This document shows, in pieces, positions 27,527-47,459 of a stretch of DNA of 47,459 nt. Position 1 is the stretch's first letter. Each line of letters opens with the position of its first letter. Origin of the DNA: Candidatus Parvarchaeota archaeon (GTDB lineage: Archaea > Nanobdellota > Nanobdellia > JAFCGN01); assembly GCA_017609105.1 (NCBI GenBank), contig JAFCEQ010000003.1, positions 1 to 47,459 of the forward strand, written 5' to 3'. The notes under the pieces were generated by a model, which worked only from the letters and a program-made list of their open reading frames with translations, was not told the origin of the DNA and searched no databases. The position numbers were made by a program, and so were the translations under genes.

Positions 27527-28192
27527 ATGAGAAATAAAATAATTCCTCATGGGAAAGCAGAAAAATTTGAATTAAAAAAAGGAGATAAAATAAAAATCCT
27601 CATTCCTTTTGGAGGCCAAGTTTCTGACATAGTCTTTGAAGGATTTAATCAAAGCATTACAAGAGAAAAACTTACTTATTCAAGACACGTAAGTGGAACA
27701 ACAACGCCTATGGCAAAAACATTAGAACAAGGTGAATGCTTATATAATTGCGAAGGCAAGCCAATTCTTCTTCTTAAAGAAAATAATGTTTCAGAATTAA
27801 GCATTAATGATTATTTTAAAATTCTTCCTGACCATATTGATAAAAACAGGTTATTTCTTCAAGAACCCCTGATTAAGCCAACTCATGACTTGCTTTGGCC
27901 TGGATGTTCTTCTGAAATATACAAAAATGAAAAAAAAGGTTGCAGGGAATTACTTTCAGAAGTTCTTGACCTTGAATTAAAAAACCTTCCATCTGTTTGT
28001 TCATTATTCATGACACTTGGTTCAAAAAACAATATTATTCCAAGTCCTGTTCAAAAAAATGATAATGTTGTTTTTGAAGCATTAGAAGATGTGCTCTTAG
28101 GAGTAACTTCTTGCCCTGATGATTGGTTTTGCAATTTAAATCCTTCAGAAGTAAATATAATCTATTATAAGAATGGGTCCGCTGGGATTTGA
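27527..28192 (+). CDS. DUF1989 (urea carboxylase-associated) family protein
   Basis: GGQVSD, HDLLWPGC, GC, V+FEALEDVLLGVTSCP motifs. Confidence 0.75.
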   Translation: MRNKIIPHGKAEKFELKKGDKIKILIPFGGQVSDIVFEGFNQSITREKLTYSRHVSGTTTPMAKTLEQGECLYNCEGKPILLLKENNVSELSINDYFKILPDHIDKNRLFLQEPLIKPTHDLLWPGCSSEIYKNEKKGCRELLSEVLDLELKNLPSVCSLFMTLGSKNNIIPSPVQKNDNVVFEALEDVLLGVTSCPDDWFCNLNPSEVNIIYYKNGSAGI

Positions 28193-28279
28193 ACCCAGGG
28201 CCTCCGGCTCACTTAGTTGAGCCTTGTTCGGAACTCGGACATATAAGACCGGCGCTCCACCAGACTAAGCTACGGACCC
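28174..28279 (-). tRNA. tRNA-Ile(UAU) with 32-nt intron at 37/38 (intron 28210-28241)
   Basis: Acceptor GGGTCCG/CGGACCC, loop CT-TAT-A|intron|A, T-loop TTCAAAT. BHB central helix CTTA/TAAG. Confidence 0.9.
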
Positions 28280-28322
28280 AAAAAACATGTTAATAAAATA
28301 AATAATTAATTTTTAAATCTAA

Positions 28323-28736: not shown

Positions 28737-28894
28737 GAAATAAATAAAATCAAAACTATATTATTAATTTAACTAAAATTAATTATAATTAAAAAATAAA
28801 ATTAAAAAAATAAATTATGAATAATTTACAAAAAATAATTGGGTATTGCAATCCTAATTATTTTTTTTTGATTTGAAGAAATTTCAAAGTTATG

Positions 28895-29021
28895 TGCTCC
28901 CGCCGGGATTTGAACCCGGGTCGCCGGCTTTCTTTCATTGTTAAACCTTCAAGTGTGTCTGAACGCCATGAAGGTTCTGATGTCGAAAGGCCGGAATCCT
29001 TGGCCGCTAGACTACGGGAGC
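28895..29021 (-). tRNA. tRNA-Glu(UUC) with 54-nt intron at 37/38 (intron 28930-28983)
   Basis: Acceptor GCTCCCG/CGGGAGC, stem CCGGC/GCCGG, CT-TTC-G|intron|A. BHB helix CTTT/AAAG. Confidence 0.92.
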
Positions 29022-45016: not shown

Positions 45017-45033
45017 CGAAAATTATTTAAGCA
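45017..45033 (+). promoter_or_regulatory. BRE/TATA promoter of tRNA-Leu
   Basis: CGAAAA-TTATTTAAGCA about 30 nt upstream of the tRNA 5' end. Confidence 0.55.
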
Positions 45034-45056: not shown

Positions 45057-45140
45057 GCAGGGGTGCCGGAGCGGTCAAACGGGGTAGGCTAAGGACCTAC
45101 TGGCTTAGTGCCTGCGCGAGTTCGAATCTCGTCCCCTGCA
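45057..45140 (+). tRNA. tRNA-Leu(AAG)
   Basis: GCAGGGG/CCCCTGC-A acceptor, GTAGG-CT-AAG-GA-CCTAC arm, long variable arm, TTCGAAT T-loop. Confidence 0.9.
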
Positions 45141-45199
45141 TTTCTTAGAAACTAAATATTATTAAAATTATATTTCTTAAAATATTTAGGTGATTTTTT

Positions 45200-47142: not shown

Positions 47143-47459
47143 ACTCCAGTTTATCCTGCTGGAGGTCACCGCTATCTGGTTGGGGATTAGACATGCAAGG
47201 CAAAAGGGTCGGGCTTGCCTGACTTCTTGCCGAACGGCTCAGTAACACGTAGACAACCTGCCCTATGGTAAGGGATAACCTCGGGAAACTGAGGATAATA
47301 CCTTATAGAGAGGAGAGTCTGGAATGTTCTCCTTTCAAAAGATTTTTTATCGCCATAGGATGGGTCTGCGGCAGATTAGGCTGTTGGTGGTGTAACGGAC
47401 CACCAAACCTATGATCTGTACGGGCTCTGAGAGGAGTGGCCCGGAGAAGGGCACTGAGA
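47143..47459 (+). rRNA. rrs: 16S rRNA, 5' part (truncated by window end)
   Basis: ACTCCAGTTTATCCTGCTGGA start, CATGCAAG, ACGGCTCAGTAACACGT, GGGATAACCTCGGGAAACTGAGG, CACTGAGA. Sharp rise in GC content. Confidence 0.97.

Follow-up and report, generated by a model that had tools for sequence, protein, structure and literature searches.

A tRNA-Leu gene with an A34 anticodon (AAG) that may stand in for tRNA-Leu(GAG) in AT-rich DPANN archaea

Here, we describe a tRNA-Leu gene with the anticodon AAG from a Candidatus Parvarchaeota archaeon (assembly GCA_017609105.1), located in positions 1 to 47,459 of contig JAFCEQ010000003.1 (the whole stretch of DNA that was analysed, hereafter the window), and the distribution of such genes across the archaeal class to which this organism belongs. 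We consider it probable (about 0.6) that this gene encodes a functional tRNA-Leu(AAG) that replaces tRNA-Leu(GAG) in AT-rich DPANN archaea and in which A34 stays unmodified, a reading drawn from sequence comparison. Archaea are said to have no tRNA anticodons that start with A and no A34 deaminase, in the accessible text of four sources (PMC8007984, PMC11066159, PMC6000648 and a preprint dated Oct 2026); according to the same portions, these surveys covered 50-220 mostly cultured archaea and included no DPANN metagenome genomes. The features of the window that bear on the gene are as follows.

45057-45140 (+), tRNA-Leu(AAG) gene, type II with a long variable arm (ARAGORN, Rfam RF00005, covariation in 127 homologous AAG genes)
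45091-45093 (+), anticodon A34-A35-G36 within the 7-nt loop CTAAGGA at 45089-45095 (sequence; loop register the same in ARAGORN and Infernal)
45141-45146 (+), T-rich TTTCTT directly 3' of the tRNA-Leu(AAG) gene, a possible transcription stop (sequence)
45017-45031 (+), CGAAAA-TTATTTAAG, a putative promoter element of the BRE/TATA type that precedes the tRNA-Leu(AAG) gene by ~30 nt (sequence; weak in an AT-rich genome)
47143-47459 (+), 5' end of an archaeal 16S rRNA gene, cut off by the end of the window (Rfam RF01959, 257 bits)

ARAGORN called a tRNA-Leu(aag) at exactly 45057-45140, and Infernal aligned the same interval end to end to Rfam RF00005 with 51.5 bits (E 2.4e-10; gathering score 29). 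The acceptor stem (GCAGGGG/CCCCTGC), a 5 bp anticodon stem (GTAGG/CCTAC), the D arm and the T arm are all present, U33 lies at 45090, and position 37 is the expected purine (G37, 45094). The variable arm, GGCTTAGTGCCTG, is 12-14 nt long with a 3-bp stem that changes from G-C to A-U in 41 of 127 AAG genes; the discriminator is A at 45140, and CCA is not encoded. A long variable arm and discriminator A73 are identity elements of leucine tRNAs, and by these two characters 45057-45140 is, as judged from its sequence, a leucine tRNA; the family score, the leucine identity elements and a loop with a leucine anticodon together place it in type II tRNA-Leu. An intact tRNA with AAG at 45091-45093 had been claimed by a prior sequence-only reading of the window, and the two programs bear this out in both coordinates and loop. 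The gene was omitted from a whole-window Rfam run at the gathering threshold and listed in sub-window and genome runs, and as its score lies above the threshold we read the omission as a filter effect. The promoter proposed in the same reading fares less well: TTATTT(T)AAGCAA motifs similar to the 45017-45031 element do precede tRNA-Gly(GCC) and tRNA-Gln(UUG) of the same genome, but in 29% GC DNA the putative element cannot be told from background. Since an archaeal 16S rRNA gene lies on the same contig, the tRNA-Leu(AAG) gene belongs to an archaeon.

The assembled genome comprises 688,123 bases in 49 contigs at ~29% GC, with an estimated completeness of 92%. ARAGORN with intron search found 40 tRNA genes and Infernal 39, the latter adding to the ARAGORN set only an odd, tRNA-like stretch of contig C45. 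ARAGORN gives AAG, CAG, UAG and UAA as the leucine tRNAs, and a regular-expression scan for the leucine tRNA body with any anticodon returned the same four. No Leu-GAG was found in this 92% complete genome by ARAGORN, Infernal or the regular-expression scan, which bears on the question, raised in the sequence-only reading, of whether a full tRNA inventory would lack it. AAG is the sole A-starting anticodon among the tRNAs found, and tRNA-Leu(AAG) the only CUN tRNA found with a purine at position 34. Because tRNAs for Phe, Cys and Trp were likewise not found in this 92% complete, 49-contig assembly, a missing GAG gene or deaminase in this genome is not proof by itself.

A tRNA-Ile(UAU) with a 32-nt intron lies at 28173-28280 (-) (ARAGORN; Rfam 58.8 bits), and a tRNA-Glu(UUC) with a 54-nt intron at 28894-29021 (-) adjoins it and tRNA-Gly(CCC). 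As the genome yielded only two CAU tRNAs, tRNA-Ile(UAU) may substitute for the agmatidine-dependent tRNA-Ile; such a replacement has been reported, in the portion of the source available, for Nanoarchaeum and Korarchaeum (PMC6000648). Genes of the tRNA-Ile(UAU) type also occur near Leu-AAG in two relatives, G053 and G071 (loci L227 and L228). Long introns are common in the tRNA genes of this genome and reach 90 nt in tRNA-Arg(CCU) on contig C44. The tRNA-like sequence that Infernal adds (G000:C45:5157-5224 (+), outside the window; Rfam 40.9 bits) has good acceptor, D and T arms and an anticodon loop of only 5 nt, and is not called by ARAGORN.

A relative of the same genus, G001, carries a tRNA-Leu gene that is 98% identical and has the anticodon AAG. 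BLAST of 60 relatives, with anticodons read by ARAGORN, gave AAG in G001 and five more, and GAG in five others. A wider survey, of 401 sampled genomes of the class, used a motif that joins the leucine D loop to an AAG-bearing anticodon loop and the first part of the variable arm. Leu-AAG matched in 139 of the 401, once in each, in 68 of 235 genera, and in 85 of the 281 genomes of at least 90% completeness; a reversed-pattern control gave 0 matches. The corresponding Leu-GAG motif matched 34 of the 401 genomes, and the two motifs never occurred together (0 of 401; none of the 139 AAG genomes matches the GAG motif). Among the first 151 genomes the UAG/CAG form of the motif matched 78, and any Leu-NAG motif matched 93 (AAG in 52, GAG in 11, only UAG/CAG in 30), the survey being blind in the other 58 and also to anticodon-loop introns. 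Where the motif can see, then, AAG is the commoner purine-34 leucine tRNA of the class (52 against 11). The anticodon is fixed in whole genera, such as genus g20, with AAG in 33 of 33 genomes. The comparison with relatives' genomes that had been proposed for this gene thus shows a lineage-wide trait, and the recurrence of the same AAG in independent assemblies (the gene of G001; 139 of 401 genomes) serves as a stand-in for read support at 45091.

A fixed-form version of the motif, run on one genome per GTDB species, matched at least 120 stretches. Among the 80 matching record titles listed, 78 are archaeal and two, both metagenome-assembled genomes, are labelled 'bacterium'; the archaeal titles among the matches listed are Woesearchaeota, Pacearchaeota, Nanoarchaeota/Nanoarchaeia/Nanobdellati, three Aenigmatarchaeota, one Parvarchaeota and unclassified 'archaeon' or 'uncultured archaeon'. 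The ORFs that flank the tRNA-Leu(AAG) gene of the window are shared only with G001, apart from one ORF shared with G002, and gene order around it is thus uninformative outside the family.

The AAG genes bear the marks of selection as tRNAs. ARAGORN called Leu(aag) in 141 of 150 motif loci, with three of the nine misses truncated by contig ends, and failed to call it in one of 20 larger AAG loci. The 127 distinct AAG sequences align readily; the invariance of AAG among them follows from how the set was selected, and the covariation does not. Of their cloverleaf stem cells 95.4% pair, a figure that drops to 75.1% in shuffled versions and to 40-53% once the partner column is offset by 1-3 positions. 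Double-sided changes were found in 19 of 24 pairs, and all five anticodon-stem pairs covary. Overall, the tRNA-Leu(AAG) gene is very probably real, functional and lineage-wide, and we infer that it is expressed and charged.

The class also contains a second A34 tRNA, tRNA-Thr(AGU), which lies beside three of the leucine loci (L003:1655-1726, L007:263-334 and L022:1070-1141). A threonine motif with A or G at position 34 gave AGU in 8 of 151 genomes and GGU in 44 of 151, and no genome of the 151 had both. The AGU carriers, 7 of the 9 genomes of family f4 plus G008, all have the same anticodon arm. Family f4 also has two matches to PF14437, the Pfam family of TadA (L070:1501-1938 (+) and L072:1468-1908 (-), in genomes G049 and G067), which score 78-79 bits on the TadA model (cut-off 150); by eye, we take these proteins, with their C-terminal WNEDIG, to resemble yeast-type cytosine deaminase. 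In intron mode ARAGORN further reported a 'tRNA-Ser(aga)' (L200:6148-6302) and a 'tRNA-Asn(att)' (L230:3170-3278) with oddly placed introns, which are probably mis-parsed intron-containing tRNAs and not further A34 genes.

Codon usage was counted in the 495 ORFs of at least 150 aa in the genome, giving CTT 4421, CTC 663, CTA 594, CTG 293, TTA 8731 and TTG 2110. CTT, judged very common by eye in the sequence-only reading, is indeed the dominant CUN codon, with 74% of CUN, 87% of CUY and 26 per 1000 codons in these ORFs. In homologues from GAG-bearing relatives, CTT aligned with leucine at 49% of positions, CTC at 40% and TTA at 47%, and a reassignment of CUU was ruled out, as CTT aligns with leucine about as TTA does. 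The T/(T+C) ratio is 0.87 for CUY against 0.91-0.96 for GUY, CCY, GCY and ACY, the boxes that keep G34 tRNAs. CUC is avoided no more strongly than other C-ending codons and is about as frequent as CUA (663 and 594), so that something appears to read it well, as would fit I34.

AAG and GAG genomes were compared over 16-kb stretches around the tRNA in 20 genomes of each kind, with ORFs taken as simple stop-to-stop frames. Local GC ranged from 0.27 to 0.39 in the 20 AAG genomes and from 0.30 to 0.60 in the 20 GAG genomes, CTC from 1.0 to 8.2 and from 3.2 to 35 per 1000 codons, respectively, and the median CTT/(CTT+CTC) was 0.85 and 0.71. At matched GC the pooled CUU share was 0.84 in AAG and 0.79 in GAG genomes (p 0.04, a value that overstates the difference, as relatives are not independent).

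The origin of the AAG genes appears to be mixed. Two genera have GAG in one species and AAG in another (G271 and G346; G304 and G316), and in both pairs the GAG and AAG genes are syntenic, with the same conserved neighbours and stems that differ at many positions. Over the whole tRNA, position 34 included, the AAG gene was also compared with the Leu-UAG gene of the same genome in 27 genomes. The two differ by a maximum of 20 bases and by only 1-3 bases in 6 of the 27 pairs (one base in G123 and G035, two in G021, three in G073, G088 and G139); four GAG/UAG pairs from the same genome are 6-15 bases apart. Such near-identity points to birth of AAG from the UAG gene by a T-to-A change, or to a likeness kept up by gene conversion. 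The GAG-to-AAG shift supposed in the sequence-only reading therefore agrees with the syntenic sites of the two genera and does not account for the genomes whose AAG gene lies 1-3 bases from UAG, and a G-to-A change in a GAG gene would seem, from these comparisons, not to be the whole story. In a tree of 85 leucine tRNA genes with the anticodon loop masked, isoacceptors group by genome and AAG does not form one clade, on branches too short for the number or direction of switches to be read.

Genes for an A34 deaminase were searched for in the genome that contains the window. No match was found in the 92% complete genome to PF14437 at E<=1, nor to PF02137 (ADAR/ADAT1 type) or PF00962 (adenosine deaminase). 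PF00383 gave one match, a 141-aa cytidine deaminase (NF004064, 93.9 bits with a cut-off of 74). This is the sole CDA-fold gene found (G000:C1:6269-6691 (-), equal to L031:1387-1812 (-)) and carries an HAE motif. The ORF 12 nt before it resembles, as we judge by eye, the t6A-machinery kinase Bud32, and the deaminase gene is itself upstream of what is presumably the ORF of ribosomal protein S15. The deaminase is 91% identical in G001 and rare in the class, and it was rejected as a general I34 enzyme, with homologues in 23 of 401 genomes, three of them AAG genomes. A search for the deaminase had been suggested along with the initial reading, and TadA/ADAT-, ADAR- and adenosine-deaminase-type genes were thus not found in this genome.

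Across the class, PF14437 is present in 74 of 139 AAG genomes, 25 of 34 GAG genomes and 126 of 228 genomes with neither, with no positive association with AAG. The 12 best PF14437 matches score 72-99 bits on the TadA equivalog model, which has a cut-off of 150, and several of these 12 resemble, by eye and on our assumption, guanine or cytosine deaminases. The TadA-like genes of relatives were accordingly rejected as an explanation, being unassociated with AAG and, in the 12 best cases, below the TadA cut-off. At E<=0.1, PF00383 had no match in the AAG genomes G020 (100% complete), G045 and G035 (98%); in two other highly complete AAG genomes it scored 12.5 bits (G022) and matched one cytidine-deaminase-like and one dCMP-deaminase-like ORF (G002). 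Of the components of an I34 wobble system, A34 in a four-codon-box tRNA was found and a TadA/ADAT2-type gene was not found in the 92% complete genome, and a TadA/ADAT-type route to inosine is unlikely in this lineage.

Leucyl-tRNA synthetase (LeuRS) recognises the discriminator base and the long variable arm of its tRNAs, and not the anticodon. Under the preferred reading, a single-copy tRNA-Leu(AAG) would fill the place of tRNA-Leu(GAG) in an AT-rich DPANN archaeon with a reduced genome, and LeuRS would charge it by way of these two elements. A34 would most likely stay an ordinary adenosine that forms a Watson-Crick pair with the abundant CUU, the rare CUC might fall to tRNA-Leu(UAG) or to weak A-C pairing, and CUA and CUG would be served by their own tRNAs, UAG and CAG. 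The trait would be old and widespread in the class, with the repeated turnover suggested by AAG at GAG sites in sister species and by near-copies of Leu-UAG. The sequence-only reading had left two options, an A34 without modification or an I34 enzyme that has escaped recognition; this pair of alternatives is upheld by the GAG and deaminase genes not found and by the lineage-wide occurrence of AAG, and the balance now leans towards unmodified A34.

The principal rival in decoding is a conversion of A34 to inosine by an enzyme unlike recognisable TadA/ADAT, giving a tRNA-Leu(IAG) of the kind known from eukaryotes and certain lactic acid bacteria, which would read CUU, CUC and CUA. Widely used A34 tRNAs of four-codon boxes are reported as I34 in the accessible parts of two sources (PMC11066159; bioRxiv 10.64898/2026.05.15.725136). 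The equal use of CUC and CUA, and the avoidance of CUC at no more than the level of other NNC codons, are also as this rival would have it. The deaminase that makes archaeal m1I57 is not known to have been identified, a precedent that makes unknown tRNA adenosine deaminases conceivable. A suitable gene of the CDA-fold, ADAR or adenosine-deaminase type was nevertheless not found in the genome, TadA-like genes are unassociated with AAG across the 401 genomes, PF00383 was not found in the three AAG genomes of 98-100% completeness, and the organism's own cytidine deaminase has homologues in just 3 of 139 AAG genomes. Moreover, AAG was seen only in AT-rich, low-CUC genomes among the 20 compared, a limit that I34 would not lead one to expect. 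We therefore regard inosine in this tRNA as unlikely, and consider it still less probable, indeed quite improbable, that DPANN archaea make I34 by a deaminase unrelated to TadA/ADAT or diverged from it beyond recognition.

A different rival concerns the cause of the change and is compatible with tRNA-Leu(AAG) having the identity proposed above: AAG would bring no decoding advantage and would be the near-neutral product of AT mutation pressure and gene conversion among leucine tRNA genes, tolerated as CUC is rare and tRNA-Leu(UAG) is able to cover the box. The restriction of AAG to low-GC genomes in the comparison of 20 AAG with 20 GAG genomes, the same-site GAG/AAG swaps within genera, the AAG near-copies of UAG genes in several genomes and the slight difference in codon use at matched GC all favour it. 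The excess of AAG over GAG where the motif sees a purine-34 gene (52 to 11) and its fixation in whole genera (33 of 33 in g20) look like more than drift, however, and, since boxes with a stronger U bias keep G34, AT pressure alone fails to explain the leucine change; we hold this account to be possible but doubtful. It is highly improbable, finally, that we are dealing with a superfluous gene copy, dead or unexpressed, or with an A that is an assembly error, and that another tRNA reads CUY. The genome is incomplete and a GAG gene could sit in the missing part, but AAG recurs in 139 independent assemblies and never alongside GAG, all stems show strong compensatory covariation, the score is well above the Rfam threshold, and no other purine-34 CUN tRNA was found to serve CUU, whose frequency is 26 per 1000 codons.

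In the openly accessible literature searched, no report of A34 tRNAs in DPANN archaea was found, and Ferroplasma was the only archaeal case of Leu-AAG found. The closest relative by gene is this lone case: according to the available part of the source, a survey of 167 genomes has Leu-AAG in one species, Ferroplasma acidarmanus fer1, which alone gained it through a change from GAG to AAG; its genome is without Leu-GAG, and its relatives have GAG (PMC6000648). The genes described here, by contrast, occur in no fewer than 68 genera of one DPANN class, and some of them look like Leu-UAG genes and not like GAG genes. Among bacteria, and again in the portions available, the Leu-AAG of Lactobacillales and Leuconostocaceae, which likewise replaces GAG in whole genera, is read as IAG after the action of TadA (bioRxiv 10.64898/2026.05.15.725136; PMC13249217), and Leu-AAG and Thr-AGU, the same two boxes as in the archaeal class, are the two commonest non-Arg A34 tRNAs, with a TadA homologue encoded in 88% of the bacterial species that have such tRNAs (bioRxiv 10.64898/2026.05.15.725136). 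Unlike those of Lactobacillales, the archaeal AAG genomes show no association with a TadA-type enzyme, and many have no detectable one. Eukaryotic tRNA-Leu(IAG) is similarly encoded with A34 in the absence of a GAG gene, but requires the heterodimeric deaminase ADAT2/ADAT3, for which the searches of the present genome gave no homologue.

The closest working analogue is the unmodified A34 tRNA of Mycoplasma. Its tRNA-Thr(AGU) is said to have been shown on RNA, by Andachi et al. in 1987, to carry an unmodified A34 and to read U best. It shares with tRNA-Leu(AAG) a small AT-rich genome, a four-codon box and the absence of a G34 isoacceptor, and in the present genome A34 without a G34 isoacceptor, the small size and AT-rich composition (688 kb, ~29% GC) and the dominance of U-ending codons were all found. 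The two differ in domain of life and in amino acid, and the unmodified state shown on RNA in Mycoplasma is inferred here.

tRNA-Leu(AAG) contradicts, at the scale of an archaeal class, the textbook rule that archaea have no anticodons that start with A, and both tRNA-based measures of codon adaptation and annotation rules for archaea presume G34 only. If A34 is modified, there is an enzyme still to be discovered, and I34 in DPANN archaea would be the first in Archaea and would imply a new enzyme family. If A34 is unmodified, as we think probable, tRNA-Leu(AAG) would have served as the standard CUY decoder of a whole class over long evolutionary time, and these genes would form the largest natural set of such tRNAs known and a broad natural testing ground for two matters, the avoidance of unmodified A34 almost everywhere and the way in which it reads C-ending codons.
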